From NCBI GenBank assembly GCA_030648135.1, contig JAUSIF010000034.1, positions 1 to 43,382 of the forward strand: a stretch of DNA of 43,382 nt, read 5' to 3'. Positions 5,587 to 33,133 of the stretch are shown here, one piece after another. A program made the position numbers and the translations under genes. The notes beneath the pieces were generated by a model, which was not told the DNA's origin, ran no database searches, and saw nothing but the letters and a program-made list of their open reading frames with translations. Source of the DNA: Xanthobacteraceae bacterium (GTDB lineage Bacteria > Pseudomonadota > Alphaproteobacteria > Rhizobiales > Xanthobacteraceae). The stretch's first letter is position 1, and every line of letters starts with the position of its first letter.

Positions 5587-5611
5587 TTCGTCATCCGCGT
5601 ATTCCTTCCCC

Positions 5612-7479: not shown

Positions 7480-7482
7480 GCG

Positions 7483-10535: not shown

Positions 10536-10564
10536 CGCGGTTCGATTCCTGCGGTACGACATGC

Positions 10565-10588: not shown

Positions 10589-10615
10589 TTGTTCGAGGCA
10601 AAGCCGGTCGCATCA

Positions 10616-12840: not shown

Positions 12841-12843
12841 CCG

Positions 12844-14349: not shown

Positions 14350-14383
14350 GCTTGCGCCTGCCAAATCCACAGTTTTACGGTTC

Positions 14384-14806: not shown

Positions 14807-14826
14807 TCGGCGAGCGCGCAGGTGTC

Positions 14827-16986: not shown

Positions 16987-18060
16987 CTAGCTCCGGTAGC
17001 GTTTCACCGCCTCCCTAATGGTGACAAATCCACCTGCGATTCCGCGCGGAAAAGCAAAGACGACGAGGATAAGCAGCAGGCCGAACATCGCGTAGCGCCC
17101 AACGGTCCACTGCGATGCAATCTCTTCCAGACCCACGAATGCAAACGCTCCCATAACTGGCCCAAGGAAGTGCCGCGTGCCGCCCAGCACGGTGGCAAGA
17201 ACCAATTGCATGGAGAAAATCCAATGCAGTTGTTCAGGCGTAATTTGCCGAACCAACTGGCCGTACAGTCCCCCGGCGAGACCCGTGAAGAAGCCGGAGA
17301 TAATGAACGCGGACCACCGGTACTGCCACACCGGAATGCCAATGAAGGCAGCGCGCGTCTCATTGTCCCTAATCGCCCTGAGGGCTTGCCCGAACGGTGA
17401 TTGGCTGATCCTCCATAAGACGAGCACGGTCGCGATGAACGCGGCAACAATCACGTAATAGAACGCGGCAACGAAGTCGGCGGGGCCATAATTGACACCA
17501 AGAATGGTGAGGCGAGGAATATACATTGCGCCTTCTCCGAGGAGATACAGCGCCCATCCAAGCCCGCCGAATAACCGGAACACCGCTCCGTTGATGACTA
17601 GGGAATACACCACCATGGAAAATACGAGCGTAAGGATGGCGAAAAATATCTTCGTGGTGCGGACGCTAAAGAATCCAATCACGGCGGCAAAGACGGTCGA
17701 GGCGAGCACGCCGGACGCCAAATATGGTTCGAAGGATTCGACGGGGGAAAACCGGACCAGAAATGCGCCGGTATATGCCGCTACGCCGAAATAAGTGGCA
17801 TGGCCGAGCGAGAACGATCCGGCAGTTCCGTAGAGGAGGTTCAAGCCCAGACATGCGATGGAAAATACCAGCATGTGGGACAGAATGATGAGCGGATAGG
17901 CGGCGAGGACCGACGGCATGAGCATGAGCACGAAGCCCGCAGCTCCGGCGAAAAGGAGCATACGAACCCGCCCGACGCGCCATGCGCCTGTATCTTGCGC
18001 CCTGTACTCGTCTTGACCCGCGAACGGCCTGACTGAGTCAGGCTCTGATTCATATGCCAT
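16987..18060 (-). CDS. orphan LivM-like ABC permease
   Basis: 357-aa polytopic ORF. SPFGQALRAIRDNETRAAFIG..YRWSAFIISGFFTGLAGGLYG closely parallels the LivM of 25126-26133. No adjacent LivH, ATPase or binding-protein gene. Confidence 0.8.
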   Translation of the reverse strand: MAYESEPDSVRPFAGQDEYRAQDTGAWRVGRVRMLLFAGAAGFVLMLMPSVLAAYPLIILSHMLVFSIACLGLNLLYGTAGSFSLGHATYFGVAAYTGAFLVRFSPVESFEPYLASGVLASTVFAAVIGFFSVRTTKIFFAILTLVFSMVVYSLVINGAVFRLFGGLGWALYLLGEGAMYIPRLTILGVNYGPADFVAAFYYVIVAAFIATVLVLWRISQSPFGQALRAIRDNETRAAFIGIPVWQYRWSAFIISGFFTGLAGGLYGQLVRQITPEQLHWIFSMQLVLATVLGGTRHFLGPVMGAFAFVGLEEIASQWTVGRYAMFGLLLILVVFAFPRGIAGGFVTIREAVKRYRS

Positions 18061-18262: not shown

Positions 18263-19909
18263 TCACGTATTCGCGTCTTCGCGAACCATGGCAGCACCCT
18301 TCTCCGCGATCATTATCGTCGGCGAATTGGTGTTGCCCGAGACAATGGTCGGCATCACCGAGGCGTCGATTACCCGCAGGCGATCGATACCGATGACACG
18401 CAGCCGCTCGTCGACGACCGCCATCGGGTCGCTCGCGAGCCCCATCTTGGCGGTGCCGACGGGATGGAAAATTGTGGTGCCGATCTCGCCGGCGGCCTTG
18501 ACCAGCGCCGCCTCGTCCGTGTCGGGGAAGGCATTTCCCGGCAGATGCTCTTGCGGGTGAAACGGCTGCAATGTCGGCTGGCGGACGATCCGGCGCGTGA
18601 TCCGGATTGAATCCGCCGCCACCCTACGATCCTCATCAGTCGAGAGATAGTTCAGCTTGATGACCGGCTTATCGCTCGGATCGGTGGAGCGCAGGCGCAC
18701 GTAGCCGCGGCTCGTTGGCTGCAAATTGCAGACACTCGCGGTGAAGGCCGGGAAGGAGTGCAGCGGCTCACCGAATTTCTCGAGCGAGAGCGGTTGGATA
18801 TGGAATTGGATGTTGGCGCGCTCCCTCTTCGGATCGGACTTAGTGAAAATGCCGAGCTGTGAGGGCGCCATGGTCAGAGGCCCCCTGCGAAAGAGAGCGT
18901 ATTGAATGCCCATGCCGGCGCGTTCGAGGATGCGCCGGTAGCTTTCGTTGAGGGTCTTCACGCCCGACACCTTATAGATGAGACGCAGCTGCACATGGTC
19001 CTGCAGGTTCTCGCCCACGCCCGGTTTGTCCAGCACGACGGGGATGCCAAAGTTTTTTAGCTGCACAGCCGGACCGATTCCCGAGAGAAGAAGAATTTGG
19101 GTCGAGCCGATCGATCCGCCGGCGAGGATAACCTCGCCGCGACAGCGAGCCACCTTGGTTGCGTCATGCTGCCGGTAGCGCACGCCGACGGCGCGTCTTC
19201 CCTCGAACATAATGCCTTCGACCAGACAATGGGTCTCCAACTGCAAGTTCTGCCGGCCGAGCACCGGCTTTAAAAAGCCGCGCGCGGCCGACCAACGCCG
19301 GCCGCGCTTCTGGTTGACGTGGAAATAGCAGGATCCCTCATTATCGCCGGTATTGAAATCGGAAATCGGCGCAATACCGGCTTCGGCCGCCGCCTCGCGG
19401 AAGCGGTCTAGCAATTCCCAGCGCACCCGCGGCGGTTCGATCCGCCATTCGCCGCCGACAGAATGATAGGCACTCGGTCCGAGAAAATGGTCTTCATGCT
19501 TCTTGAAAGCCGTGAGCACGTCATCCCAGCCCCAGCCGCGTAGACCGAGCTGGCGCCAGTGGTCATAGTCGGCCGCCTGCCCGCGCATACAGATCATGGC
19601 ATTGATGGTGGAGGAACCACCGATCACCTTGCCGCGCGGATAGGAAAGGCTGCGGCCGTTCAGACCTTCCTCGGGCTCGGTGCGGAAGCACCAGTCGGCG
19701 CGCGGATTGCCGATGGCGAAGAGATAGCCGACGGGAACGTGGAACCAGATCCAGTTGTCGCGTCCGCCGGCCTCGAGCAGCAGCACACGAGTGTTCGGAT
19801 CGGCGGATAGACGGTTTGCGAGCACGCAACCGGCCGATCCGGCTCCGACGATGACGTAGTCGAATTCGTCAGGGCTTTTCGGCTCAAGTTTTTTTTGAGT
19901 CATCGACAT
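18263..19909 (-). CDS. GMC family FAD-dependent oxidoreductase (choline/alcohol dehydrogenase-like)
   Basis: N-terminal FAD fold [28 protein letters not shown] and C-terminal HPVGTAKMG motifs. Confidence 0.9.
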
Positions 19910-20265
19910 GATGGTAGCTGCTTAAGATCGGTTGATCACCTTTCGTTGCGAGGATTGCTTAGAGCGCACTTGCAGCGCAATGGCATGATATTCCGTTCGC
20001 TCCGCACCACTTGCGGTAGCATGAGGGCAAGTGATGGAATGACGATATTGGTCTGATAAACATGACAAAATCAGCTGTAGAGCCTCGCTCTGCTCGCAAG
20101 GCGGTCCGAACGATCACAATGCTTTTGCTGTCCATCATCACCAGACTAGCCCACCAACGGCTTATAGGCATAGACTATCTCGATGAGTTCAAGAACAAGC
20201 TTCAAAATCGAGCTCTGAATCAAACCACTCTTTCCACGCCTCACACACTGTAGGGGAGGAATTTC
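19910..20265. promoter_or_regulatory. divergent non-coding control region upstream of the 11.7 kb operon
   Basis: 356 bp, AT-richer than its surroundings, lying between divergent genes. AGGGGAGGA Shine-Dalgarno sits 5 nt before ATG 20266. No operator motif identified. Confidence 0.35.
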
Positions 20266-21648
20266 ATGGAAAACCAGGTTTCACGCAGGAACTTTCTGAA
20301 CCGGCTGGGCGTCACGGTGGGCGCTGCCGCTGCCGCGACCGCGGTGCCGGCCACCTATTTCGCCGGACCGCGGCCAGCGCATGCGGCTATCAAGGTCAAG
20401 GGAAACATCCCAGACAAGCCGTTCAAGACCGGCCACATCACGTTCCTGACCGGCCCCGCCAATCTTCTGGGCGAGCCCGGCCGGAAAGGGCATCTGCTGG
20501 CAGCCGAGGAGATCAACGCCGAAGGCGGGTTCCTTGGCAAGCGGAAGATCGAAACCATTGTCGCCGACGAGGCCGCAGGTACCGACGCCAACGTCAAGGA
20601 GCTTCGCCGCATGAAGCTCTCCGAGAAGATCGACCTGTTCACCGGCGTCATCTCCAGCGGCAACACGCCGGCCCTCGGCCCGGTCGCCGAGGAACTCGGG
20701 GTGCTGACGATGTTCAACGACGGCTGCACCGACTTCCTGTTCGATAAGGCGGTGCCCAAGCCGAAATACGTCTTCCGGGTAACCAACATCCAGTCGGCGG
20801 ACGGCGTCACTTCAGCGGTCGGAGCGGCGAAGGCCTGGCCTCAAGCAAAGAAGGTCGGCTCCATCCAGCCGGACTACAGCTACGGCCGCAACGTGCATGA
20901 GCATTTCATGCTGGCGTTCCAGAAGCTGGTTCCCGGCGCTGCGTCCGTCTCCGAGGCGTGGCCGAAGCTCGGCACCACCGACTTCACCCCGCACATCACC
21001 AAGCTCTTGTCCGACAAGCCGGACGCCCTGATCTGCGGCCTGTGGGGCGGCGACTACGTGGCGTTCTACAAGCAGGCCCTGCGCTACGGCCTGTTCGATA
21101 AGATGAAAGTCGCCACCACGCTGGCCTTCGGCGGACAGCCGCACGCCATCGGTAAGGATCACCCCGAGGGCGTTCTGGCCGGTGCACACGCCAACTACTT
21201 CTTCACGCATCCGGCCAAAGGGCGCTGGCCGATCAACGACTCGTTCGTCGAGCGTTACTACAAGCGCTGGAACGAATATCCGAGCTTCGAGTCGGACGGC
21301 GCTTATGTGTCGCTTTACCTGCTCAAGGCCGCCATCGAGAAAGCCAACCTGCTTGTCGGCGGCTGGCCGGAGGACGACGTCATCATCAGCCTGCTTGAAG
21401 GCATGGGGATGGATACGCCGGCCGGTTATCTCTACATCCGGCCCGACAACCACCAGGGCTACAAGGACACCGTGATCGGGATGACCAAGAACGATCCCAA
21501 GTACGACTTCCCCATTTGGGATCCGAAGTCGATCATCACGATTCCGATCCGCGACATCACGGCGCCGCCCAATTGGCCGAAGCCCGGCACGTCGCATAAC
21601 GAGTCGACGGCAGCGGCCAACTGGCTCAAGACCACCTGGCTGACCTGA
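20266..21648 (+). CDS. Tat-signal ABC substrate-binding protein, LivK/Peripla_BP_6 type
   Basis: Canonical twin-arginine leader MENQVSRRNFLNRLGVTVGAAAAATAV..AHA. The body has LivK-family features (GFLGRKIETIVADEA, ISSGNTPALGPVAEE). Confidence 0.85.
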   Translation: MENQVSRRNFLNRLGVTVGAAAAATAVPATYFAGPRPAHAAIKVKGNIPDKPFKTGHITFLTGPANLLGEPGRKGHLLAAEEINAEGGFLGKRKIETIVADEAAGTDANVKELRRMKLSEKIDLFTGVISSGNTPALGPVAEELGVLTMFNDGCTDFLFDKAVPKPKYVFRVTNIQSADGVTSAVGAAKAWPQAKKVGSIQPDYSYGRNVHEHFMLAFQKLVPGAASVSEAWPKLGTTDFTPHITKLLSDKPDALICGLWGGDYVAFYKQALRYGLFDKMKVATTLAFGGQPHAIGKDHPEGVLAGAHANYFFTHPAKGRWPINDSFVERYYKRWNEYPSFESDGAYVSLYLLKAAIEKANLLVGGWPEDDVIISLLEGMGMDTPAGYLYIRPDNHQGYKDTVIGMTKNDPKYDFPIWDPKSIITIPIRDITAPPNWPKPGTSHNESTAAANWLKTTWLT

Positions 21649-21667
21649 GTGCAACCCTGATCGGACG

Positions 21668-21708
21668 GGGAGCGGTCGTGTTTCACCGACACGGCCGCTC
21701 CCTTTTCC
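21668..21708 (+). terminator. intercistronic stem-loop with T tract after the binding-protein gene (partial terminator/attenuator candidate)
   Basis: gggagcggtcgtgt / acacggccgctccc forms a 14-bp stem (one G-U) with a 7-nt loop, followed by ttttcc. Confidence 0.5.
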
Positions 21709-21730
21709 GGGTTGAAGGAAGATTCTTACG

Positions 21731-24124
21731 ATGCATCGGGGCTTTGATGGGCCGGCCGTGCGGCGGATGCGTCACGGCCGCCTTGCTTCCCGCGATCCCA
21801 TCCGGCGCGGGGTCGTAAAGCGCGTCGCCGGTGTAGCCATGACTGCTGGCCTACTTGTCGCCGGCGGCCAAAGCGGCGCCGGTCATTCGGTCGGCCACTA
21901 TCCCTCCTATTACCCCGATGAGATCCGCATCGACGCCGTCGATCCGGCGGCGGCCGCCAAGGGTCTCGGCGACGAAACGCTGCATGCGTACGTCAGCGGG
22001 ACGCCGGCCTTCGCGGGGCCCGTGCCGGGGCACGTGAAGTCGGTGAGGTCGCTGGGATCATTTCTGGTCCTCTCCTTTAATACGGCCTCCGCACGCTTCG
22101 CGTCCGCCGACGGCCGTTGCACCGCCGCCCGCGGCATCCTGGCGGCGCTCAGCGAGGAAAAAGCGGCCGGCTTCATCTTCCACCCCTATCCAGTGACGCC
22201 TTATCACGCCGACTACCTGCATCATCTGGACCGCATCGATGCGGTCACGGCCGTCATCGGCGGTGGATCCACGCCGGCATCGTCCCTGAAGGTCGGCGCC
22301 AAAGGCGGGCTCGCGGAGGCGATGGTCAAGGCGCGATGGGGGCTCGCGGCCGATGGCGCGGATGCCGTCCTCGAGGAGGTGCCGGTGGACGAGCTGATTG
22401 CCGCCGCCGGCGTGCGGTTCGACGGTTGGTCGGGGCCGCCCTGGGCGAAGGAAGGTTGGTTCCAGGCGCATCAGCTGCTGGCACCGGGCCTCGACGCCGC
22501 ATCGCGGCGGGCAGTGGACGAAGACTATGCGCGCCTGATCCACGGCGAAACCGTCGGCCTGACGGAGCGGGTGAATCTGGAGCGGCGCCTGGTGGAGGCA
22601 CTTAACAATGGCTGCCAGCGCACGGTCGTGGGTTACGCGCCGAAGGAAGAAAACGTCAACGAGGCGTACCCGGCGGGAATCGAGAACGTCGCCTATGATT
22701 CACTCAGCGGCCTCAACAGCCCCGTCTTCTTCCGCACCGTGAAGCTCAAGGACTATCCGTGGAACGGCAAGCTGCACCTTGGGGTGCGCGAGCGCTCCGA
22801 CGCGGCCTGGAATCCGGTGGCCGGATTCACTGACGTGATGGGAAGGCTGATCTGGTCGGCCATCGGCGATCCCGCCATGATTCAGTTTCCGTTCAACGCG
22901 AGCTGGATGCCCAACCGCCTGCAATCGGTCGTCACCAAGGTGGAAGGTCAGTCCGGTGGCATCAGAGTGCCGGCCGACGCGGTCCGCCCGCAGTCGGGAA
23001 CGGGGGCGCTGCAACGCGTGGACGCCAGGACGTTTGCCTCGGCGAAGGTGACCTATGAAGTTCTTGCCTCGCCTTTCGAGGACGGCACCGAGATGGGGGT
23101 GGCGGACCTGATCTATCCGTTCGTTTTCGCCTATCGCTGGGGCGCCAAGACGGATACCGGCGACAATACCAGCGAGCCACGCCTGGCGGCGACGTTGGCC
23201 TCCATGCAGGAGCGCCTGGCCGGGCTCAAGTTCGTGCGCATGGAAAGGACGACCCATGCCATCGCCGAGGGCATGAATATTGTTCAGAAAACGCCCGTGC
23301 TGGAGGTCTATCTCAGGAACGTCCCCGGGGACGAGCAGCAGATGGCTGCCCTGGCGCCACCGTGGAGCACGGTGCCCTGGCATCTACTGGCGCTGATGGA
23401 AGAAGCGGTGATCCGGGGATATGCGGCCTTTTCGGAGGAAGAATCCAAGAGGCGGCGGGTCCCTTGGCTGGATCTCGTTCGCGATCCGGCGCTCAGAGCG
23501 AAATTGCAGGACCTGATCGTGCAGTTCGAGCGGGAGCGCTATCGCCCCGAGACGCTGAAAGACCTCGTCACCGCCGACGAGGCGCAGGCGCGCTGGCGGT
23601 CGCTCGGAGCCTTCGCCGAAAAGAACGGCCATTTCCTGGTCGCCAACGGCCCCTATCGGCTGAAGGAATGGACGCCCGACTCGGTCGTGCTGCAGGCCGT
23701 CCGCGAAGCCACTTATCCGTTGGGATTCGGCACTTTCGACCGCTTCGTCAACCCGCCGAGGGCGGTAATCGAAGCGGTGACGCAGGACTCCGGCGAGATC
23801 GCGGTGCGCGCCAGCGCTGAAATGATTTTGAAGATGGGGCGCAAATACCAGGCTGTGAAGGAACCGCTCTTGCGAAAGACAATGCGGGGGACCCTTGGGC
23901 TGCTCGTCGTTTCCCGCTATCTCCTGATCGGTCCCGACGGCACGGTTCTCAACGTCGACAAGATGCAGTGGAGGGAGGACGGGCGCTTCACAATCAATCT
24001 TCCGGAGCGCCTGCCGCCGGGCCCTTACACGATAATCCTAGCCATTTTCCTCGACGGAAATTCCATGTTGCCGTCGGCCAAGATGTTGCGCTTCCGCGTC
24101 GGCGGGGCGGCTTCTCCGGGCTAG
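21731..24124 (+). CDS. large exported protein of unassigned family (full-length paralogue), with family-5 solute-binding-protein-like motifs
   Basis: 797-aa ORF with GAAGGAAG 9 nt upstream of the ATG. Arg-rich N-terminus with RRGVVK plus a hydrophobic stretch. The N-half is paralogous to 27750-28901 and the C-half to the C-terminus of 29262-31967. Motifs KVTYEVLASPFEDGTEMGVADLIY and ANGPYRLKEWTPDSVVL recall SBP_bac_5 proteins. Confidence 0.8.
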   Translation: MHRGFDGPAVRRMRHGRLASRDPIRRGVVKRVAGVAMTAGLLVAGGQSGAGHSVGHYPSYYPDEIRIDAVDPAAAAKGLGDETLHAYVSGTPAFAGPVPGHVKSVRSLGSFLVLSFNTASARFASADGRCTAARGILAALSEEKAAGFIFHPYPVTPYHADYLHHLDRIDAVTAVIGGGSTPASSLKVGAKGGLAEAMVKARWGLAADGADAVLEEVPVDELIAAAGVRFDGWSGPPWAKEGWFQAHQLLAPGLDAASRRAVDEDYARLIHGETVGLTERVNLERRLVEALNNGCQRTVVGYAPKEENVNEAYPAGIENVAYDSLSGLNSPVFFRTVKLKDYPWNGKLHLGVRERSDAAWNPVAGFTDVMGRLIWSAIGDPAMIQFPFNASWMPNRLQSVVTKVEGQSGGIRVPADAVRPQSGTGALQRVDARTFASAKVTYEVLASPFEDGTEMGVADLIYPFVFAYRWGAKTDTGDNTSEPRLAATLASMQERLAGLKFVRMERTTHAIAEGMNIVQKTPVLEVYLRNVPGDEQQMAALAPPWSTVPWHLLALMEEAVIRGYAAFSEEESKRRRVPWLDLVRDPALRAKLQDLIVQFERERYRPETLKDLVTADEAQARWRSLGAFAEKNGHFLVANGPYRLKEWTPDSVVLQAVREATYPLGFGTFDRFVNPPRAVIEAVTQDSGEIAVRASAEMILKMGRKYQAVKEPLLRKTMRGTLGLLVVSRYLLIGPDGTVLNVDKMQWREDGRFTINLPERLPPGPYTIILAIFLDGNSMLPSAKMLRFRVGGAASPG

Positions 24125-24253
24125 TTGGAACATGCTGTCGGCGGCGGCAAAGCATGTGAACTCGCCGCTCATACCTGGGGTGTCCGCGCCGGGCCGTCAG
24201 CTTCTTGCAAGGCAAACCGTGGCGTCCTAGCCTTAACAATCGGCGGGGGGAAA

Positions 24254-25129
24254 ATGGATATCCTAATCATTCAAATCCTGAATTCCATTTTCTACGCCTG
24301 CATCCTGTTCCTCATTGCCGCCGGCCTCAGCCTGATTTACGGGGTCATGCGGATCATCAACCTGGCGCATGGCAGCCTCTATGCGCTAGGCGCCTACGTC
24401 ACGGCCTGGGCCATCGGCACCTTTGCCGCCGGCGCCCCGCTCTGGGTGTCGTTCCTGCTTCTGCCGGCGGGAGCTGTGGTCGTGGCCGCGGTCGGCGCCG
24501 CCATCGAGCCGACGCTGTTGCGGCCGCTTTACAATCGGCCGGAGGAATATCAACTCCTAATCACCTTCGCCCTGCTGCTGATCCTCGAGGACGCGATGCA
24601 CTTCCTGTTCGGGGGTACGCCGCTCACGGCGGGCGCGGTCATAGACAGCATGGGCACCATGCCAATTATGAACCTGCGATATCCCGTCTATAACCTCCTG
24701 GTCATCGCTATCGGCATCGCGGCCGCCGTCTTCCTCTGGGCCTTCATCTACCGCACCAAGTTCGGGGTCATCCTCAGGGCCACGTCGCAGAATATGCGCA
24801 TGGCCTCGGCGCTTGGCTTGAACGTCAAGCGGGTATACGTGCAGGCATTCGCCCTTGGCTGCTTCATGGCCGGCCTCGGAGGCGCGGTTGTCGTACCTGC
24901 TCAGGCCGCCGTGCTCGGCATGGGTATCGAGGCGCTCATTTTGGCATTTGTCGTCGTCGTCATCGGCGGGCTCGGCAGCCTCGAGGGAGCATTGATCGGC
25001 GCGCTGATCGTCAGCTTTGTGCGCACGGCCGGCATCCAGTTCTTTCCCGAAATCGAACTCGCGGTGCTCTACCTGATTGCGGCCGTCGTCCTGCTGGTAA
25101 GGCCGACCGGCTTATCCGGGAGGGCGTGA
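24254..25129 (+). CDS. LivH-like ABC permease
   Basis: MDILIIQILNSIFYACILFLIAAGLSLIYGVMRIINLAHGSLYALGAY is a LivH-type N-terminus. ATG at 24254 follows GGGGGGAAA. The track ORF from 24125 is an upstream extension. Confidence 0.9.
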   Translation: MDILIIQILNSIFYACILFLIAAGLSLIYGVMRIINLAHGSLYALGAYVTAWAIGTFAAGAPLWVSFLLLPAGAVVVAAVGAAIEPTLLRPLYNRPEEYQLLITFALLLILEDAMHFLFGGTPLTAGAVIDSMGTMPIMNLRYPVYNLLVIAIGIAAAVFLWAFIYRTKFGVILRATSQNMRMASALGLNVKRVYVQAFALGCFMAGLGGAVVVPAQAAVLGMGIEALILAFVVVVIGGLGSLEGALIGALIVSFVRTAGIQFFPEIELAVLYLIAAVVLLVRPTGLSGRA

Positions 25130-26133
25130 CGATGCAGAACGACGCCTCCCGCACCGGACCCTCGATGCTGTTGATCCTCGCCTGCGTGATACCGATTCTC
25201 GTTGTGCTCGTGGCGCTGCCGAAATTCGTCGATACGTATCAGATACAGTTGCTCACCTACGGACTGATTTATGCCATCGCGGGGCTCGGTTTCAATTTAT
25301 TGCTCGGCTATACGGGACTGCTTTCCTTCGGCCATTCCGCCTATTTTGGCCTTGGCGCCTATTCCGCGGCCTTCATGGCCAAGTATTTCGGCGTCGGCTC
25401 CATGGAGATCTACATCCTGGGCGGGCTCCTCATCACCGGCCTCGTTAGCGCGGCGTTCGGCTACATCTGTGTCCGCCACACCCGTATTTTCTTCGGCATC
25501 CTGACGCTTGCGTTGTCGCAGGTGTTGTGGACGCTGGCTTACAAATTCTTCTGGGTAACCGGCGGCACCGATGGCCTTCGCGTGCCCTTCGCCAATTTGA
25601 CGCTGCTTGGCGGGTTGATCGACTTCAAAGGCCGCGACACCTATCAGGCGTTCACGCAAAGTTATTATTATTACGTGCTGTTCCTGTTTTGCATTTGCAC
25701 GGTTTTCATGTGGGTGATCGTACATTCGCCCTTCGGCAAGGCGCTACAGGCGATTCGCGATAACGAGACGCGGGCGCAGTTCCTGGGCGTGCGGATCAGG
25801 CACTACCGCTGGTTCGCGTTTCTGCTGTCCGGCAGCTTCACGGGCCTCGCTGGCATCCTGTGGGTGCCGCTGAACGGCCTGGTCACGCCCGATATCCTGT
25901 ATTGGCCGTTCTCCGGCGAGATCGTGTTCATGACCGTACTCGGCGGCTTCCGTACGTTCACCGGACCGATCGTCGGCGCCGTGGTGTTCAATTATCTCAA
26001 GGTCTACGCCGTCGCCAGTACCGCGTACTGGCAATTGCTGCTCGGTGTCGTACTCGTGGTGCTGGTGTTGGCATTACCGACGGGCATCGTCGGAACGCTG
26101 TCTCGCCTCTTTGGCAAGTTCAGGAAGAGGTGA
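25126..26133 (+). CDS. LivM-like ABC permease
   Basis: GTG at 25126 overlaps the previous TGA (GTGA); alternative ATG at 25132. Motifs NLLLGYTGLLSFGHSAYFGLGAY and ALQAIRDNETRAQFLG. Confidence 0.9.
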   Translation: MTMQNDASRTGPSMLLILACVIPILVVLVALPKFVDTYQIQLLTYGLIYAIAGLGFNLLLGYTGLLSFGHSAYFGLGAYSAAFMAKYFGVGSMEIYILGGLLITGLVSAAFGYICVRHTRIFFGILTLALSQVLWTLAYKFFWVTGGTDGLRVPFANLTLLGGLIDFKGRDTYQAFTQSYYYYVLFLFCICTVFMWVIVHSPFGKALQAIRDNETRAQFLGVRIRHYRWFAFLLSGSFTGLAGILWVPLNGLVTPDILYWPFSGEIVFMTVLGGFRTFTGPIVGAVVFNYLKVYAVASTAYWQLLLGVVLVVLVLALPTGIVGTLSRLFGKFRKR

Positions 26134-26137
26134 TGAC

Positions 26138-26911
26138 ATGAATCTCCTCGAAACTATCAATCTCAAGAAATATTTCGGCGAGACGCATGCGGTCGACAAT
26201 GTCAGCCTGACCATCGCCGAGCGCGAGTTCGTCTCACTGGTAGGCCCAAATGGCGCCGGCAAGACCACGCTCGTCAACGTGGTCAGCGCCTTATTTCGTT
26301 CGGACTCGGGGAAAATCCTGTTCAAGGGCGATGACATCACCCATACCTCCGTGACCGAGCGCGTCAAAGCGGGAATTGCACGCAGCTTTCAGATCGTGAA
26401 CCTGTTCGACGATCTCACCGCATTCGACAACGTGACACTTGCGATCTTTTCCCGTCAGGGTAAGACCGGCAATCCGGCGACGCTTGCCCACCTGGATCAC
26501 GAGGTGAGCGCCGAAGCGGATGCCGTGCTCGCCCAATTCAACCTTACGAGCAAACGCAAAGAGCACGCGCGCGATCTCGCCCAAGGCGAGCGGAAGCTGC
26601 TCGACGTGGCGCTCGCCTACGCGCTGAAACCGAAGCTCCTATTCCTCGATGAACCGACGAGTGGCGTGAGCACCCGCGACAAGGGCCAGATCATGGATAC
26701 GATTGCCTCGGTCGTGCGGGGCGAAGGCATCACCGCCGTCATCATCGAGCACGACATGGATGTCGTGTTCAAATATTCCGATCGGATCGTGGTTATGCAA
26801 CAGGGCGCAATTCTCGCCCAGGGTACGCCCGATGCGATCAGGAATAACGATCAGGTCGCGATGATCCTGCTCGGCACTTCCGGACCGGACGCTTTCACAC
26901 GAAAGGATTGA
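26138..26911 (+). CDS. LivG-like ABC ATPase
   Basis: ATG at 26138 after GAGGTGATGAC. Walker A GPNGAGKTT, signature-like AQGERKLLDVA, Walker B LLFLDEP. Confidence 0.9.
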   Translation: MNLLETINLKKYFGETHAVDNVSLTIAEREFVSLVGPNGAGKTTLVNVVSALFRSDSGKILFKGDDITHTSVTERVKAGIARSFQIVNLFDDLTAFDNVTLAIFSRQGKTGNPATLAHLDHEVSAEADAVLAQFNLTSKRKEHARDLAQGERKLLDVALAYALKPKLLFLDEPTSGVSTRDKGQIMDTIASVVRGEGITAVIIEHDMDVVFKYSDRIVVMQQGAILAQGTPDAIRNNDQVAMILLGTSGPDAFTRKD

Positions 26912-27636
26912 TCGACGTGCTCGAGATCAAGGCGATCGATACCTACCGCGGCCCCGCCCATATCCTGTACGGCTTGTCCTTGCGCGTCGAAAAACAGGAG
27001 GTGGTGTGTCTGGTCGGACGCAACGGCGCCGGCAAGACCACCACGATCGAAAGCATCATGGGATTTCTGCCGGTTAGGACCGGGCAAATCCTCTTCGACG
27101 ACGAGGATTTGACGAATCTTCCGCCGCACGAACGGGCCAAACGCGGCATCGGCTACTCGCCGGACGACTGCGGCGTCTTTCCCGAACTTTCTGTGGGCGA
27201 GAATTTGATGATCAGCCGCTGGCTGGGGGACGAGGTCGCCCGCCGACGCGACGGCAAGGAGCGTGCAAACCCGGAAGCGCAGGCCTTTGACATTTTTCCC
27301 GAAGTCAAAACGCTGTTGCAGCGCCAGGGGCTGCACCTGAGCGGCGGCCAGCGCAAGATGGTGGCGATCGCGCGCGCCATGATGCTGTCGCCCACGCTGC
27401 TCTTGCTCGATGAGGCGTTCGAGGGGCTGGCTCCGGTCGTGGTCAACCGCTTCATCGAAGCGGTGATGAAGATCAAGGCCATGGGCGTCTCCATCCTGAT
27501 GGCGGAGTCGCATCTGGCCGCGGCGACGCGGATCGGCGACCGGCTCTACGCCATCGATCGCGGTGAGATCATCTTCCATGGGCCGCCGAAGGAAGCGCTT
27601 GCCAATGAGAAGGTTGTGAAGGCATTGCGGGGGTGA
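26908..27636 (+). CDS. LivF-like ABC ATPase
   Basis: TTG at 26908 overlaps the previous TGA (alternative GTG at 26917). Walker A GRNGAGKTT, signature LSGGQRKMVAI, Walker B LLLLDEA. Confidence 0.9.
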   Translation: MIDVLEIKAIDTYRGPAHILYGLSLRVEKQEVVCLVGRNGAGKTTTIESIMGFLPVRTGQILFDDEDLTNLPPHERAKRGIGYSPDDCGVFPELSVGENLMISRWLGDEVARRRDGKERANPEAQAFDIFPEVKTLLQRQGLHLSGGQRKMVAIARAMMLSPTLLLLDEAFEGLAPVVVNRFIEAVMKIKAMGVSILMAESHLAAATRIGDRLYAIDRGEIIFHGPPKEALANEKVVKALRG

Positions 27637-27749
27637 GGCCGCCGCATATTTGGGTGGCTTGTGCGGTGGAAAATCGTCATCCTGAGGTGACGGCGCGAAG
27701 CAAACCCCCCGAAGGGTGACGGCGTCGACCTAGCATCCTGGATGCCACA

Positions 27750-28901
27750 ATGAATCGTCGCAGCGCGTTCATCATGTTCGCGATGGCAGTTACCATCGCC
27801 ACCGCGGCCAGGAGCGGCCACGAGCTGCCGGTCTATCCCTCCTATTATCCTCACGAGATTGAAATTACGACTGTCGCGCCAAAACGCGCGGAAGGCCTAT
27901 TGCTCGCGGGCAAGATCCAGGCCTATGTCGGCGGCGCGCTACGTTTCGCCGGCGCACCGCCGGCTTCGATCGGCAACGTCGAGTCGCTCGGCTCCTTCGT
28001 GATCGTCCGCGTCAACCCGTCCTCGCCCCTGGCCAAGGACGGCCGGTCCGCCTGCACCGTCGCAGAACTCGTCATCCAAGATCTAGCCGGGAAGGGCGGG
28101 GGTCTGATCCTTCATCCCTATCCGGTCACGCCCTTTCACGGCGATTATCTGTACCACGTCGATCTCGCCGAGGCCGCGAAGGCGCGCATTCTGGGCGGCC
28201 GTGCCGATTCATCAGGTTCTGACACCCAATACTTGAAATTGAAGGCCGGCAGCGAATTCGCGCAAACCATCGTGCGTCCCGAATGGCGCACCCAGGGTTC
28301 GGACTGGGATGTGGAAGTGGCAGAAGTCGGCGCCGCGGAGCTCGTTGCCAGCGCGAGCGTTGCGATGAACGGTTGGCTTGGTCCCGCTTGGATAAGAACA
28401 GGGTGGTTTCAAGCTTATCTTTTTCTGAACGAGCACGCCAGCGACGAAAATCTGAAACAACGCATCGAAACCCTATTCCAGCGCTTGCAGACGTCTGCCT
28501 ATGACGATGCAGTCGAACGCATCAATCTGGAGCGGTCGCTCGTTACGGCGCTGGCTAGTGGCTGTCACGCACTCGTCGCCGGCTACACCGTGAAACGCGA
28601 GTACTTCAATGTCGACTCCTCTGCCGGGATCGAAAACATCGCTTACGATTCGCTTAATGGTCTAAATTCGCCGATGTTCATCCGCACCGTGAAGCTGAAA
28701 GATTTTCCCTGGAACGGCTCGCTTGCGCTCGGGATCGGCGCACCGCCAGCAGCCGTTTGGAATCCGGTTGCAGGCTTTACCGACGAATACGGACGACTGA
28801 TGTGGTCCGCGGTGGGCGACCCGGCTTTGATTCCATCGCCCTACGAGTCGGCCTGGATGCTCAATCGCATCTCCGACGTTCAGTCAAGCGCTAAGCAATG
28901 A
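27750..28901 (+). CDS. exported protein, N-half-only paralogue of the 797-aa protein
   Basis: 383 aa. Leader MNRRSAFIMFAMAVTIATAA. Colinear with residues ~50-430 of 21731-24124 (YPSYYP.EI.I, LGSF.V, HPYPVTP.H.DYL.H, IEN.AYDSL.GLNSP.F.RTVKLKD.PWNG, WNPVAGFTD..GRL.WSA.GDPA). It stops where the full-length copy continues. Confidence 0.8.
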   Translation: MNRRSAFIMFAMAVTIATAARSGHELPVYPSYYPHEIEITTVAPKRAEGLLLAGKIQAYVGGALRFAGAPPASIGNVESLGSFVIVRVNPSSPLAKDGRSACTVAELVIQDLAGKGGGLILHPYPVTPFHGDYLYHVDLAEAAKARILGGRADSSGSDTQYLKLKAGSEFAQTIVRPEWRTQGSDWDVEVAEVGAAELVASASVAMNGWLGPAWIRTGWFQAYLFLNEHASDENLKQRIETLFQRLQTSAYDDAVERINLERSLVTALASGCHALVAGYTVKREYFNVDSSAGIENIAYDSLNGLNSPMFIRTVKLKDFPWNGSLALGIGAPPAAVWNPVAGFTDEYGRLMWSAVGDPALIPSPYESAWMLNRISDVQSSAKQ

Positions 28902-29302
28902 ACCAAATGAGGCGTGTCGTTGGCGTGATCCCTGCTTCATTCGCTGGATGTTTTCTGGCGCTTTCTCTGCTCTTGGCACCGTGCCTAACCGTCACCTGCG
29001 CCAAGGCCGAAGAAGTCACGTTCGATCTGCGGGTCGAGCGTGGGCGCGTGCCCGTCAACATGCGGCTGATCCGCGTCGAGCAAGGCGACGTCGTCAAGCT
29101 GCGGTGGAGCACCGATCAGACAACGATCCTGCATCTCCATGGCTACGACATCGAAATGAAGATCGAGCCCGGTGCCATGGTGGAGATGAGTTTCACCGCG
29201 CGCGCCACCGGAAGGTTTCCAGTTTCCGCCCACAAGCCCAAGCAGGGCAGCGGTCACACTCATGATCCGCCTCTGGTCCATGTCGAAGTTCATCCGCGTT
29301 AG
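28898..29302 (+). CDS. small exported cupredoxin-like protein lacking the type-1 Cu cysteine
   Basis: ATGA overlap with the previous gene. Hydrophobic leader. IRVEQGDVVKLRWSTDQTTILHLHGYDIEMKIEPGAMVEMSFTARATGRFPVSAH follows the cupredoxin strand pattern, but the position normally holding C..H..M reads SAHKPKQGSGHTHD. Confidence 0.65.
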   Translation: MNQMRRVVGVIPASFAGCFLALSLLLAPCLTVTCAKAEEVTFDLRVERGRVPVNMRLIRVEQGDVVKLRWSTDQTTILHLHGYDIEMKIEPGAMVEMSFTARATGRFPVSAHKPKQGSGHTHDPPLVHVEVHPR

Positions 29303-31967
29303 CGCGATCGCGTGGTGCCGGTCAGCCGGGACGATTCTTCCGCTCGTAGTGGCTGCATCGGCGGCTTGCGCACTTGCGACCCCCGCGAGCGCCCACGGCT
29401 TCGGCCAGCGCTACGATCTTCCTCTGCCACTCTCGCTCTATCTTCTTGGGGCGGCGGCCGTTGTCGTGTTTTCGTTCGTCATCGTCGGCCTCTTCGTTCG
29501 CCAAGCAACGCACGCCCGCGAATATCCGCGTTTCAATCTGCTTGCTCATTCTGCCGGCAGATTGATCGCGCATCCCGGTCTCGTTCTTGTTCTCAAGCTT
29601 GTCTCGCTCGTTTTGTTCGTCGTCACCGTGACGGCGGGTTTCCTCGGCGACCAGAACCCGTACCGAAACATCGCGCCGACCATGGTGTGGATCATCGTAT
29701 GGGTCGGCCTCGCGTACGCTTCGGCTTTCGTGGGCGACATCTGGGCGCTGATCAATCCATGGCGAACGATCTTCGAAGGAGCGGAGTCGCTTTACGGACG
29801 GATCGCCGGTGGGCGTGATCTTTCTCGTCGCCTGCACTATCCCGAAGCGCTCGGTGTCTGGCTCGCAGTCGTCCTGCTGCTGGCCTTCTCCTGGTTCGAG
29901 CTCGTCTATCCCACTCCCGCGATTCCAGCGCAGATCGCGTGTCTGGCAGTCGGTTATTCCATCCTCACCTGGACCGGCATGGCGGTGTTCGGCCGCGAGA
30001 CCTGGCTGCGGCACGGTGAGGTCTTTTCCGTCGTCTTCGGCACCTTCGCCCGTTTTGCGCCGACGGAGGCGCGCGCCGACCTGCGGCGGCAGGAATTGAT
30101 TCTGCGGCCCTTCGGCGCCGGGCTCCTCGATAGCCGGCCCGCTTCGCCGTCGATGGCGGCCTTCGTGCTCCTGCTGCTTTCCACTGTCCTTTATGACGGC
30201 CTACTGAACACTCCGGAATGGTCGAACCTGGAGAACGTTGTCGGCGCCCTCCTGCGCGATCCCGGTGAACTCGGATTGATCGCGATCAGGAGCATCGGTC
30301 TCGTCGCGTTCTGGCTCTTGTTCCTCGGCGCCTATATGGCGGTGAGCGCGATCATGAGCGCGGCGGAGGCAGGACGCCGCTCGCCGCTCGAGATCGCGCA
30401 GAGCTTCGCCTTCACCTTGATTCCAATCACCATCGGCTATCACCTGGCGCATTATCTCGTGTTCCTGCTGATCCAGGGGCAGTACATCGTTCCCCTGATT
30501 TCCGATCCTTTCGGCTACGGCTGGAATCTCTTCGGTACCGCCGGATATCGGGTCGACATCGCAATCGTCGGTGCCCGCTTTGCCTGGTACGCGGCGGTTA
30601 CCGCGATCGTCGTTGGGCATATCGCCGCCGTCTATCTCGCCCATGTGAAGGCGATGCAGGTATTCGAATCTCGCCAAGCGGCGCTGCGATCCCAGGTTCC
30701 GCTCACTGCGCTGATGGTGGTCTATACCTTCGTCAGCCTCTCAATTCTCGCCGAGCCGATCGTCGAACGCCGCGCGCCCGCGCAGCCGACCGCTATCGCA
30801 GCCGCCGAGATCGCTATTCCCGCCGACGCGGTGCTGCCCGAGCCGGGGAGCGGTCGTCTGCAGCCGATCGGGCCGGGCAAGCTCGCCCGGGTGAAATTGA
30901 CCTACCGCGTGCTCGGTTCCGCCTTCCATGACGGCACCCGGACGAATGTCGCCGATCTGCTCTACGCCTATATGTTCGCCTATCGCTGGGGCGTCCGAAG
31001 CGAGGGAAGCGATGCTCACTACGACCCCTTCATCGACTCTGCGACCGCTACCATGCGCCGGCAGCTTGCTGGATTACGCGCCGCGGGGAGTGACGCGGTG
31101 TCCAAGTCCTTCCGGATCGGAGACGTCAATTTCCTTCGCGAGCTATTCACAGTCGAAGTCTATGCGACGGTCGTGCCCGAGGACCCGGAGCGAGACGCGG
31201 TCGTGGCGCCACCCTGGAGCACGCTTCCCTGGCATCTGATCGTCTTGATGGAGGAAGCCGTCGATCGGGGTTGGGTCGCGTTTTCGAAGGACGAAGCGGC
31301 GCGCCGCGGCGTCGAATGGCTCGATCTTGTCCGTTCCGAGCGAATGAACGTACGACTGGCGTCGCTGATCGAGACGTTCGAACGTGAAGGCTATCGTCCC
31401 ACCGCTCTTCAGTCCCTGGTGAGCGCCGAGGAGGCTCGCAAGCGTTGGGCGGCGCTTGCTACCTTCTACAAGGCTCGCGGCCACTTCCTGGTCACCAACG
31501 GGCCGTACCGGTTGAAGCGCTGGTCGAAGGAAAGCGTCACGCTCGAGGCATTCAGGGACCTGACCTATCCGCTCGGCGTGGGCTCCTATGACGCCTACGC
31601 GATACCGCGCAGAGCCTACGTCACCAAGATCGAGCGGGAAAAAAACCGCATCAGGCTTTTCGCCGACATCGAGACGATCATGAAATTTCAACGGAGCTAC
31701 CGGATTGACCGGGGACCGATGCAATCCATCTCGCGCGATATCCTGAAACGGGCAGCACCGGAATGCCGGTATGTGGTGATGGACGATGAAGGCCGCGTCG
31801 TGCTGGCGGGTACCGCTCCTCTGGCTGATGATTTGACTTTTCAAGCGGACCTGAACGGCAAACTCGCGGCTGGCCGTTACATCATGGCTGCCTTGATCGC
31901 CGTCAACGGCAATGTCATGAACGCGGACATCCACCGTATCCCCTTGCTAATTTCGTCCAATCCATGA
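29262..31967 (+). CDS. fusion protein: signal peptide + ~10-11-helix membrane domain + C-half paralogue of the 797-aa protein
   Basis: 901 aa (alternative ATG at 29280); overlaps the previous gene by 23-41 nt. Predicted cleavage ..ATPASA|HGFGQRYDLPLPL. Polytopic to about residue 500. From IAIPADAVLPEPGSG (about nt 30810) it is colinear with residues ~410-797 of 21731-24124 (K.TY.VL.S.F.DGT...VADL.Y...FAYRWG, APPWST.PWHL..LMEEAV.RG, GHFLV.NGPYRLK.W). Confidence 0.8.
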   Translation: MIRLWSMSKFIRVSAIAWCRSAGTILPLVVAASAACALATPASAHGFGQRYDLPLPLSLYLLGAAAVVVFSFVIVGLFVRQATHAREYPRFNLLAHSAGRLIAHPGLVLVLKLVSLVLFVVTVTAGFLGDQNPYRNIAPTMVWIIVWVGLAYASAFVGDIWALINPWRTIFEGAESLYGRIAGGRDLSRRLHYPEALGVWLAVVLLLAFSWFELVYPTPAIPAQIACLAVGYSILTWTGMAVFGRETWLRHGEVFSVVFGTFARFAPTEARADLRRQELILRPFGAGLLDSRPASPSMAAFVLLLLSTVLYDGLLNTPEWSNLENVVGALLRDPGELGLIAIRSIGLVAFWLLFLGAYMAVSAIMSAAEAGRRSPLEIAQSFAFTLIPITIGYHLAHYLVFLLIQGQYIVPLISDPFGYGWNLFGTAGYRVDIAIVGARFAWYAAVTAIVVGHIAAVYLAHVKAMQVFESRQAALRSQVPLTALMVVYTFVSLSILAEPIVERRAPAQPTAIAAAEIAIPADAVLPEPGSGRLQPIGPGKLARVKLTYRVLGSAFHDGTRTNVADLLYAYMFAYRWGVRSEGSDAHYDPFIDSATATMRRQLAGLRAAGSDAVSKSFRIGDVNFLRELFTVEVYATVVPEDPERDAVVAPPWSTLPWHLIVLMEEAVDRGWVAFSKDEAARRGVEWLDLVRSERMNVRLASLIETFEREGYRPTALQSLVSAEEARKRWAALATFYKARGHFLVTNGPYRLKRWSKESVTLEAFRDLTYPLGVGSYDAYAIPRRAYVTKIEREKNRIRLFADIETIMKFQRSYRIDRGPMQSISRDILKRAAPECRYVVMDDEGRVVLAGTAPLADDLTFQADLNGKLAAGRYIMAALIAVNGNVMNADIHRIPLLISSNP

Positions 31968-32201
31968 AAATCACGTCGTCGTTGCGCTTCACCGCAGTCT
32001 TCTCCCTGGCTGGTCGGAAAAGACAAGGAAGGCTATTGGATCGTTCTCGATCAGTCGGGGCTGAACGGCGGCATCTTCATCGATTGCGCCGAGGCACTAC
32101 GTTTCGCGTTGTCCGAGAACGGTCGACGTCCAAGGGCAATCGTCCTGGTTCCCGGGATTCTCGAACTCGATCTCAATCTGCGGATTGAGTACGCAGCTTG
32201 A
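31964..32201 (+). pseudogene. small ORF, apparently frameshifted in an A-run
   Basis: ATG at 31964 overlaps the TGA of the 901-aa gene (ATGA). Frame A reads MKITSSLRFTAVFSLAGRK, then turns into Arg-rich off-frame-like sequence. The +1 frame from 32019 reads KDKEGYWIVLDQSGLNGGIFIDCAEALRFALSENGRRPRAIVLVPGILELDLNLRIEYAA*. The switch point is gaaaag at 32017-32022. Confidence 0.3.
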
Positions 32202-32378
32202 GCACTCATTAGAATTTCTCCCGACGGGTCCGAGGGAGAATCTTCCTTTCTTCTTCGCGCCAACTTGTTGATTCACTTACGATTGCGTGTCCTCATACTT
32301 CCACAGTGCTTCCAGAATACGATCAAAACATAAGCGCCGAAAGTCGGAGCCTGCCAACTCTTTAAGATGACGGGTTAC

Positions 32379-32429
<51 letters not shown>

Positions 32430-32798
32430 AGGTCCGCTTCGCGTCAGAACCAGTAATCAGATAGCACCGGGCTAATCGTCCGCTTTGCCGCCCATAGCAG
32501 AACTGGACTTCGGCAGATCGAGTTCTCGTGCACTCATTTTGGATATGGCGTCACTTGCAGAAGCGATGCAATTTCCAACTTTGGGACCGCAGCATGCGTC
32601 CAAGCTCCTGATTAATTACAATTTTAAAACCCGTACTAATTCCACATAGTCCAGAACTTTGGAGAAAAGAAGGCCTGGGAGACAACGAGCGGGCGTTGTA
32701 CACCTCGGCGCAGTCCACAGCCATGTCCGGAGAATCTCGCCACAACTCGAGATCTTCGCCGCAATGACCGGTCGGAGAATACGTGGGCTGAGAGATGC

Positions 32799-32872
32799 TG
32801 GCTGGGGGACTAGGATTCGAACCTAGATTAACGGAGTCAGAGTCCGCTGTTCTACCATTGAACTATCCCCCA
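32799..32872 (-). tRNA. tRNA-Gln (anticodon CUG)
   Basis: The minus strand reads TGGGGGATAGTTCAATGGTAGAACAGCGGACTCTGACTCCGTTAATCTAGGTTCGAATCCTAGTCCCCCAGCCA. It has a 7-bp acceptor stem (TGGGGGA/TCCCCCA), anticodon loop CTCTGAC, T loop GGTTCGAATCC and encoded CCA. Confidence 0.9.
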
Positions 32873-33133
32873 TCACGGCGATCGGGTCGCGGCGCGGGCG
32901 CCGAAGCGCGAACAGCGCGGAGTGAAGCCAGATCAGTTTCCTATCCGAGGCACCCCGGTGAGGCAAGTTTCGGCCCGGCCGGAAAATTCGGCGGCGCCGG
33001 TACCGGATGACCTGCATTTTTCGTCATATTGCCATGCAGCAGACACATTGCTGTCATGCGGTAAGTCTAAGTAGTAACGCTGGAATACCAGCCTATATTG
33101 GGCTCGGAATTAAGCCAAAGATTGGGGATCACT

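Follow-up and report, generated by a model that had tools for sequence, protein, structure and literature searches.

The entry of copper across the bacterial inner membrane is poorly understood, and to our knowledge only a few copper importers (CcoA, CopD/YcnJ) have experimental support. Among periplasmic binding proteins, family 5 (cluster C) includes the metal-chelate binders NikA, CntA and MbnE. Here, an operon of nine genes (g1 to g9, positions 20266-31967) was analysed in contig JAUSIF010000034.1 of a Xanthobacteraceae bacterium (assembly GCA_030648135.1); the window is the whole stretch of 43,382 nucleotides (nt). Genes g1 and g3-g6 have the subunit set and the domain families of HAAT-type ATP-binding cassette (ABC) importers such as LivJ/K-HMGF and UrtABCDE, whereas the four additional genes (g2, g7, g8 and g9) are present in no known HAAT operon. 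The nine genes might form a composite uptake system, the non-ABC half of which captures and translocates a metal, most likely copper, and we rate the chance of this as somewhat short of even. This metal-capture reading is the best supported one, since invariant His residues were found in every non-ABC protein and homologues of the core pair, which is made of g8 and the membrane domain of g9, were located in copper-related gene neighbourhoods.

CopC/CopD (YcnJ, YcnI) also combine a small periplasmic beta-sandwich metal-binding protein with a His-bearing membrane protein of several transmembrane (TM) segments, also start with His after signal cleavage, and also lie beside genes of copper membrane monooxygenases (CuMMO) and other copper enzymes. 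However, there is no sequence relationship: neither g8 nor g9 matched PF04234 or PF05425, nor did 42 diverse members of the g9 membrane family at E values up to 10, the membrane domain has ten TM segments and not eight, and g8 carries an HxH...H site which is not that of CopC. The proposed g7-g9 metal module would thus be analogous to CopC/CopD by function, not by descent. In Fet3/Ftr1, EfeUOB and FtrABCD (with the cupredoxin-like FtrB), a periplasmic cupredoxin-type protein is likewise coupled genetically to a permease, and the HxHG motif of g8 is like that of multicopper oxidases, but here FTR1 (PF03239) was not matched, REXXE was absent from the g9 sequence, and P19 or EfeO/EfeB partners were lacking. 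PmoD and the CuB site of PmoB/AmoB have an N-terminal His and an HxH on a cupredoxin fold, and the pair stands beside hmoCAB in mycobacteria; here these two elements are distributed over separate proteins, g9 with the N-terminal His and g8 with the HxH, profile searches revealed no homology to PmoB or PmoD, and the window has no monooxygenase gene. The initial annotation could match the gene set to no characterised system, and literature searches agreed with it, giving no description of the g8/g9 pair or of the operon.

Features of the nine-gene operon and its signals (positions in the window; aa, amino acids)
Feature	Position	Strand	Assignment	Evidence or remark
GGCATAGACTA	20167..20177	+	Promoter-like element, candidate -10 region	Conserved, about 85 nt ahead of the g1 ATG
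g1	20266..21648	+	LivK/UrtA-like (Peripla_BP_6) binding protein exported by twin-arginine translocation (Tat), 460 aa	PF13458, E 1e-56
g1-3' hairpin	21667-21709	+	16-bp G+C-rich stem followed by UUUU, directly after the g1 stop	Minimum free energy -42.9 kcal/mol, z = -3.94
g2	21731..24124	+	Exported, unsplit, putative remote OppA-type binding protein, 797 aa	Sequence and fold match to 7fi3
g3	24254..25129	+	LivH/UrtB-type permease	PF02653, E 1e-39
g4	25126..26133	+	LivM/UrtC-type permease	PF02653, E 2e-39
g5	26138..26911	+	LivG/UrtD-type ATPase	PF00005, E 3e-29
g6	26908..27636	+	LivF/UrtE-type ATPase	PF00005, E 1e-29
g7	27750..28901	+	Exported protein corresponding to the N-half of g2, 383 aa	45% identity
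g8	28898..29302	+	Exported, Cys-less, cupredoxin-like protein, 134 aa	Three-His site H79, H81, H112
g9, N-terminal domain	29280..30794	+	Signal peptide and ten TM segments, about 500 aa	Hydropathy and charge
g9, C-terminal domain	30795..31967	+	Periplasmic OppA-like C-half with immunoglobulin (Ig)-like beta-sandwich	41% identity to g2

The g8/g9 core pair and its neighbourhoods

In g8, the LHLHGYD motif that holds H79 and H81 was invariant, H112 was conserved to at least 90%, and E130 was also conserved. There was no conserved Cys or Met, so the Cys-containing ligand set of type-1 and CuA sites was absent. The name cupredoxin-like protein, taken over from the initial annotation, agreed with a series of weak matches: 32 of 38 orthologues matched PF13473 (best E 3e-5), 29 of 38 matched Cu-oxidase_2 (PF07731), and the g8 profile found nitrite reductase, multicopper oxidases/laccases, nitrosocyanin and CuA domains in PDB (E 1e-4 to 0.1). 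All of them were sub-threshold, those to the two Pfam families staying under the gathering scores, which leaves the name a qualified one. Homologues of g8 in other lineages had His-rich tails (HDHDHDHDH).

Two further arrangements of g8-type genes were observed. A repeat domain of the type GxGHAH-[IV]-Y-[VL]-[DN]-G was fused to the cupredoxin-like protein in three loci (L084, 6871-8004; L085, 6194-6988; L087, 6200-6994) and to PCuAC in Sulfitobacter (L171, 5904-6662); it corresponded to no Pfam family in the precomputed matches, and it is probably a further periplasmic metal-binding module. In locus L026 (9413-12586), g8 and g9 formed a single open reading frame (ORF) of 1,057 aa, which may be a genuine gene fusion or the result of a sequencing frameshift; a genuine fusion would support a physical interaction of g8 and g9.

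The membrane domain of g9 showed ten hydrophobic segments, with 22 Lys and Arg residues inside versus 4 outside, and this charge bias places both the mature N-terminus (ASA/HGFGQRYDLP, the slash marking the cleavage site) and the C-terminal OppA-like half in the periplasm. Across 42 family proteins with 33-48% identity, the invariant residues included the His that comes first after the signal, an Asp-Gly pair in TM6 and three intramembrane His, of which one lies in TM8 and the others in TM9; the TM8 and TM9 His were placed mid-membrane and towards the cytoplasm. A profile of this domain collected 5,613 clusters at 50% identity (1,376 of them at E <=1e-30), mostly free-standing proteins of 460-530 aa. 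The family had no name in any source, and its 42 diverse members gave no Pfam match even at E 10. No PDB sequence relative was found for the domain, while Foldseek on the AF2 model returned spurious helical matches only. CopCD, FTR1/EfeU and HupE/UreJ-type permeases were tried as identities for g9 and rejected, as no profile match at E 10 and no PDB sequence match were obtained. A Cys-rich insert of about 30 residues (CxxCxxxC-x6-CxxCxxC) was present in the predicted cytoplasmic TM5-TM6 loop of 9 of 34 aligned g9 homologues (P0170, P0173, P0178, P0181, P0184, P0188, P0199, P0205 and P0238), after the equivalent of g9 residue ~265; it was absent in the window, and its motif may form a zinc-ribbon or a metal-receiving knuckle.

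Homologues of the non-ABC genes were abundant. The 797-aa family comprised at least 802 clusters and the 901-aa family (the longer form of g9) at least 1,895 (90% identity), all labelled hypothetical, and g9 relatives occurred in 280 species when one genome per GTDB species was scanned. When the nine proteins were compared by tblastn with 80 loci from other species, the cassette order recurred in about 50 of them, as g1-g2-...-g9 in about 35 and in the same order without g2 in about 17. Cultured carriers were Bradyrhizobium erythrophlei, B. murdochi, B. centrolobii, B. iriomotense, strains Pha-3 and LMG 9283, and Vineibacter terrae, which makes the operon genetically tractable; carriers known from metagenome-assembled genomes (MAGs) included Pseudolabrys, Stellaceae, Hyphomicrobiaceae, Casimicrobiaceae and Acidiferrobacterales. 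The flanks varied between loci, the cassette being inserted between rpoBC and rpsL in L001, and a search of the flanks of the 80 loci for conserved enzymes or regulators gave lineage-specific neighbours only (UbiD, AMP-binding, TctC and others). The same order with differing flanks indicates that the cassette is a self-contained unit. A fortuitous meeting of an ABC operon with unrelated hypothetical genes could draw on the very high frequency of HAAT operons in this genome, but it is contradicted by about 50 loci, belonging to several orders, in which the genes have the identical order and the junctions overlap, and it can be regarded as virtually excluded. The homologues were thus tightly linked to each other and to HAAT genes in many genera.

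The initial annotation had taken the four non-ABC genes for additional cargo of the importer. This was reversed by the distribution, in which g8 and the g9 membrane domain appeared as an ancient and widespread core (more than 5,600 clusters), and the ABC genes together with g2 as the more variable part: g2 was missing in the about 17 loci above, and in Methylomirabilota/Rokubacteria only g8, g7 and g9 stayed together, the HAAT genes being distantly related ones nearby in some loci or not adjacent. A g8 homologue lay directly upstream of the membrane gene in all six places inspected singly (marine Chloroflexota, probable archaea, Bauldia and others), either alone, with the HDHDHDHDH tail, or fused to GxGHAHxYVDG repeats. 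Among the 67 metagenome loci with enough upstream DNA, 49 had an ORF with the H[LVI]HGY[DE] motif ending at the membrane gene, and several more were frameshifted. Judged from these patterns, the g8-type protein plus the ten-TM protein is the ancestral module; the ABC importer, the OppA-like protein in its split form and g2 were added later.

In unrelated lineages, several neighbourhoods of the pair were related to copper. On plasmids of Mycolicibacterium chubuense NBB4 (pMYCCH.01; L169, 6473-9095) and Mycobacterium dioxanotrophicus PH-06 (L170, 4241-8911), the cupredoxin-like and membrane-family genes accompanied a SigC gene and were located between or beside the CuMMO genes hmoCAB and a soluble di-iron monooxygenase, with the pair flanked by SigC and a zf-HC2 anti-sigma gene in PH-06. 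In the published review of these clusters SigC is said to be a possible hydrocarbon regulator; a role in copper supply seems more likely at these clusters. In M. tuberculosis, SigC prevents copper starvation (PMC7924339). The pair, or the membrane gene, was also found on the same strand within aa3-type oxidase operons (L156, L116; COX1, COX2, COX3, COX4 and cytochrome c). In Bauldia (L087) its neighbours were a CopC-CopD fusion and DUF1775/YcnI, in Haloprofundus it belonged to a metal island that also carries genes for a P-type ATPase and a CDF transporter as well as a plastocyanin-like gene, and in Sulfitobacter the membrane gene lay beside the PCuAC fusion protein.

The same features could point to chemistry instead of transport. 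In g8, the HLHG motif and the Cu-oxidase_2 matches resemble what multicopper oxidases have as type-2/type-3 ligand motifs, while g9, with its N-terminal His, recalls histidine-brace oxidases. This would suit a periplasmic copper oxidase or redox module in which g8 and the g9 membrane domain, as a membrane-anchored oxidase or electron-transfer complex, modify a compound held by the split OppA-like domain before the HAAT importer takes up the product. The family stands beside GMC oxidoreductase genes (in the window, Variovorax and Sagittula), nicotinate dehydrogenase, CuMMO and aa3 oxidases; a Urt/amide-like importer after an oxidative step is chemically plausible, and g8 could work by itself or, like multicopper oxidases, hold copper at HxH sites between the subunits of an oligomer. 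Yet g8 lacks the Cys and Met of a type-1 electron-transfer site, and with only three conserved His it could not build a trinuclear cluster without ligands from a neighbouring subunit. In the membrane domain the TM His are spaced i, i+3 and i, i+8, which does not resemble bis-His heme b sites, and profile searches revealed neither a quinone or heme motif nor an oxidase-family match. An oxidase is therefore considered unlikely. A sensor, in which a periplasmic ligand is detected by the tethered OppA-like domain and the signal is passed on through the membrane domain to control the ABC importer or gene expression, is very improbable: binding-protein-like domains are common sensor inputs and histidine kinase genes follow the pair in L085 and Pseudonocardia, but g9 has short cytoplasmic loops and no cytoplasmic output domain, and the conserved cassette moves as a unit between unrelated contexts without any regulator.

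The OppA-like proteins g2, g7 and g9

No Pfam or NCBIfam family was matched by g2, g7, g8 or g9, so the initial annotation was right that the four proteins belong to no well-characterised family, and its statement that they contain no recognisable enzyme and no regulator was supported by the profile searches, although the conserved His and the copper neighbourhoods now give a functional lead. Its description of an unassigned family holds for these databases but not for the C-halves, which resemble an OppA-type protein by sequence and fold. Residues 359-658 of g2 aligned with residues 22-302 of the archaeal OppA 7fi3_A (phmmer E 9e-14), and the g9 C-half matched the same chain (E 6e-6 by phmmer, 1e-7 by Foldseek). 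With the AF2 model of g2 (pLDDT 70), which like that of g9 was built from a shallow alignment (66-100% identity), 7fi3 was the top Foldseek match (E 5e-12), followed by MppA, OppA and DppE. The C-terminal ~110 residues of g2 form an Ig-like beta-sandwich in the model. The motifs FEDGT..ADL and NGPYRLKEW of g2 correspond to FHDGT..ADL and NGPYRLKRW in the g9 C-half, and motifs of the types FxDG..A.D and GPY.LK.W are common to ordinary family-5 proteins, which were found in the flanks of related loci.

The halves could be placed on g2 with precision. Residues 22-377 of g7 aligned with residues 50-400 of g2 over 357 residues (E 2e-97), and residues 511-880 of g9 with residues 411-779 of g2 (E 3e-88), as expected from the earlier designations N-half paralogue and C-half fusion. 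As g7 covers the N-half and the g9 C-terminus covers the C-half, with the break at g2 400/411, one copy of the protein is encoded as two polypeptides. Such a split binding protein with one half fused to a non-ABC membrane protein, and the repeated partnership of the membrane family with HAAT genes, are two seemingly undescribed features; for the split, membrane-tethered binding protein and its HAAT coupling, no prior description was found in Pfam, NCBIfam, PDB and literature searches.

Compared with the cluster C/family 5 proteins OppA, DppA, MppA and NikA, the C-halves of g2 and g9 and the GPY.LK.W-type motifs are alike, but only about 300 residues align, the N-half precedes the OppA N-terminal lobe and matches nothing, an Ig-like domain stands where family-5 proteins usually have their C-terminal part, one copy is divided between two polypeptides, one of them joined to a non-ABC membrane protein, and the operon has no BPD_transp_1 permease. 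PF00496 (SBP_bac_5) was not matched by g2, g7 or g9 at E 0.01, and hhalign with three ordinary family-5 proteins aligned the GPY motif region only (E 0.078). An ordinary Opp/Dpp peptide system was rejected, there being no PF00496 match and no Opp permeases, and was kept as remote ancestry. A circular permutation of OppA, with the N-half as domain III, was examined with the profile against PDB and with hhalign; no Pfam or PDB sequence relative appeared for g7 or the g2 N-half, with only a weak PBGD-like motif (E 0.4). From the sequence matches and the models, the g2 family is a very remote and probably rearranged OppA-type (family 5) binding protein.

The N-half carries its own candidate metal ligands. 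In g7, the residues G23, H24, H122, D138, C102 and C272 were invariant, and the cleavage context was A-R-S/G-H-E or A-E-A/G-H-E in 36 of 36 orthologues. The predicted mature N-terminus of both g7 and g2 was an invariant Gly-His, with S-G-A/G-H-S among the further contexts. In the GHK peptide, for example, an N-terminal Gly-His serves as a classical Cu(II)/Ni(II) site.

Proposed metal uptake and its weighing

Under the metal-capture reading the operon would consist of two linked machines, a HAAT importer (g1 and LivHMGF) and a metal module around the core pair. The core has in this lineage gained the split OppA-like protein (g7 and the g9 C-half) and the unsplit soluble paralogue g2, which could serve as a soluble scout for metal capture by g7, g8 and g9. 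A periplasmic metal, free or chelated, would be bound by the OppA-like proteins with their Gly-His N-termini, handed on through g8 and the N-terminal His of g9, and cross the membrane along a His-lined path of g9. For the ABC importer, the cargo might then be the organic ligand freed from a metal chelate, the intact chelate, or a nutrient that is metabolised with the help of the metal. Operon structure, conservation, homologies, conserved residues, topology and neighbourhoods are shown here, whereas metal binding, the identity of the metal, the direction of transport and the hand-off to the ABC importer, with its role, are what we infer. A bolder version, in which g8 and the ten-TM protein are a widespread new copper or nickel importer or metallation machine of bacteria and archaea and the window operon is its most elaborate form, the split flytrap taking a metal-ligand complex, the metal passing through the permease and the ligand through the HAAT importer ("strip and import"), is regarded as doubtful.

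Several points weigh against metal capture. We know of no HAAT importer that carries metals, and Ni(II) would fit the N-terminal His motifs equally with Cu(II). No binding-protein lobe could be linked to the OppA-like N-half. For the g9 membrane domain the AF2 model was poor (pLDDT <50 over much of TM1-3); together with the lack of a structural relative, this means that the word permease reflects topology and conserved polar residues only. Neighbours were also heterogeneous: among 148 ORFs beside pair-only loci the most frequent families were COX3 and pentapeptide repeats with five each, and there were three cytochrome c and two NnrS, and the pair-only metagenome loci lay mostly beside unrelated housekeeping genes, copper-related neighbours being a minority. 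The link to copper therefore comes from several selected, independent cases and not from strong enrichment.

The catabolic clusters bear on the same question. In Sulfitobacter (L171), Fuscovulum (L175) and Neorhizobium (L173), the membrane gene was co-operonic with or divergent from a different HAAT system (31-40% identity to that of the window), within nicotinate-catabolism clusters (6-hydroxynicotinate reductase, molybdenum hydroxylase, UPF0280), and in Sagittula (L174) it ended an operon of HAAT genes, GMC oxidoreductase, aldehyde dehydrogenase and tannase. The membrane-family genes of these four loci had no cupredoxin partner, and the HAAT-linked membrane genes in the nicotinate and aromatic clusters of Rhodobacterales and Rhizobiaceae were mostly without any cupredoxin or copper gene; an organic-solute or redox role would account for this linkage no less well than metal capture. 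It could be accommodated by a metal-independent accessory function, the ten-TM protein being a binding-protein-dependent secondary transporter or a HAAT subunit, with the OppA-like receptor tethered to it and g8 as a structural partner. Operons that join the membrane family to HAAT genes come in at least three architectures (that of the window, the nicotinate clusters and Sagittula), a binding-protein half fused to a membrane domain is typical of transporters, and the nearest solved relatives of g1 presumably bind aromatic acids. Such a function is quite unlikely all the same, as it leaves unexplained the His that is invariant at three mature N-termini, the cupredoxin with its three His and the His-rich tails, as well as the repeated siting beside CuMMO/SigC, oxidase, CopCD and PCuAC genes. 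The majority of family members lack an ABC neighbour, and with a second complete HAAT operon and a lone permease in the window some adjacency is to be expected by chance.

A two-gene module found in thousands of clusters and beside copper monooxygenases, cytochrome oxidases and copper chaperones is a strong candidate for a missing copper route into bacteria. Even if the idea of a metal is wrong, three sizeable unannotated protein families gain a testable context.

The HAAT importer, transcription signals and flanking genes

The identities given earlier to the ABC genes (LivK-type, LivH, LivM, LivG and LivF) were confirmed by Pfam and NCBIfam domain matches and by the Tat signal of g1, and the ABC part is complete on its own, as had been proposed, with one PF13458, two PF02653 and two PF00005 proteins, all far over the gathering scores, making the full subunit set of a HAAT importer (TC 3.A.1.4). 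The Tat signal, of the S/T-R-R-x-F-L-K type, scored 19.2 bits with TIGR01409 (cut-off 16.7), and within its RRNFL motif R7, R8, F10 and L11 were conserved to at least 95% in 48 orthologues, the RR pair being invariant. In the same set g1 was unusually conserved, with 213 of 460 positions at 95% or more. Its nearest solved structures, 3i45, 8tg1, 3n0x and 4ey3, are Tat-signal HAAT binding proteins from structural genomics.

The best NCBIfam models for the five subunits were UrtA-E (TIGR03407-03411). A urea transporter was nevertheless rejected, the scores and cut-offs in bits being 90/493 for UrtA, 165/250 for UrtB, 156/296 for UrtC, 189/304 for UrtD and 201/286 for UrtE. As all five lie under the equivalog cut-offs, the ABC half is a sister group and not a urea transporter; no urease genes were present within the cassette. 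Its substrate would be a small organic solute that cannot be named from the sequence.

The ORF table gave all nine plus-strand ORFs at the coordinates of the initial annotation, and codon-position G+C supported all the long ORFs as coding. The window has 62% G+C, and its nearest relatives are Xanthobacteraceae/Hyphomicrobiales MAGs. Gaps of 82 nt (g1/g2), 129 nt (g2 to the LivH ATG), 4 nt (LivM to the LivG ATG) and 113 nt (LivF/g7) alternated with overlaps at LivH/LivM (GTGA at 25126), LivG/LivF (TTGA at 26908) and g7/g8 (ATGA at 28898), while g9 overlaps g8 by 41 or 23 nt, depending on a start at 29262 or 29280. The latter is the start of the public gene call (P0121, 895 aa); the longer start gives 901 aa.

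The layout, overlaps and gaps of the nine uninterrupted genes were thus exactly as first described, but the hairpin after g1 qualifies the word uninterrupted. None of 200 shuffles was equally stable, and a hairpin followed g1 in 50 of 51 related loci with differing stem sequences; the other terminator-like sites within the operon did not exceed the shuffle expectation. A partial terminator or stabiliser is often placed after the binding-protein gene of ABC operons. The hairpin looks like one of these and is probably a partial terminator or a messenger RNA stabiliser that raises expression of the binding protein, so that read-through into the operon is probably attenuated, or the g1 message stabilised, and transcription is not strictly uninterrupted.

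Upstream of g1, the element GGCATAGACTA is shared by the window and its closest relatives and is preceded, about 19 nt further upstream, by a CTAGCC/CTGGCC box (both within window positions 20140-20180); it is a probable promoter -10 region on sequence grounds. The leader after it contained small GAGCT/AGCTC hairpins. A riboswitch was rejected, no Rfam match being found in the leader (best E 1.5), and so was a sigma-54 promoter, as a TGGCAC-N5-TTGC site was found in 0 of 44 upstream regions.

Downstream of the operon, at a distance of about 0.8 kb, a tRNA gene (32802-32872, minus strand, 71 bits with Rfam) lay in a stretch of lower G+C (55% in 32001-33000), and it could mark an insertion boundary of the cassette. 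Nothing in the region hinted at a phage or defence origin, although no search aimed at one was made. A gene for a GMC-family FAD oxidoreductase (18263-19909, minus strand) is divergent from the operon, and GMC oxidoreductases were also located near membrane-family homologues in Variovorax paradoxus (L168) and Sagittula (L174). A second complete HAAT operon (4218-8939; Peripla_BP_6, two BPD_transp_2 and two ABC_tran) and a lone BPD_transp_2 permease gene (16987-18060, minus strand) were also found, so HAAT systems are abundant in the window and some chance adjacency is expected. The genes at 9543-15336, which are unrelated to the operon, encode TctC and TctA, an S15 X-Pro dipeptidyl-peptidase-like protein and an FlK-type (fluoroacetyl-CoA-like) thioesterase, and indicate a transporter-rich catabolic region.

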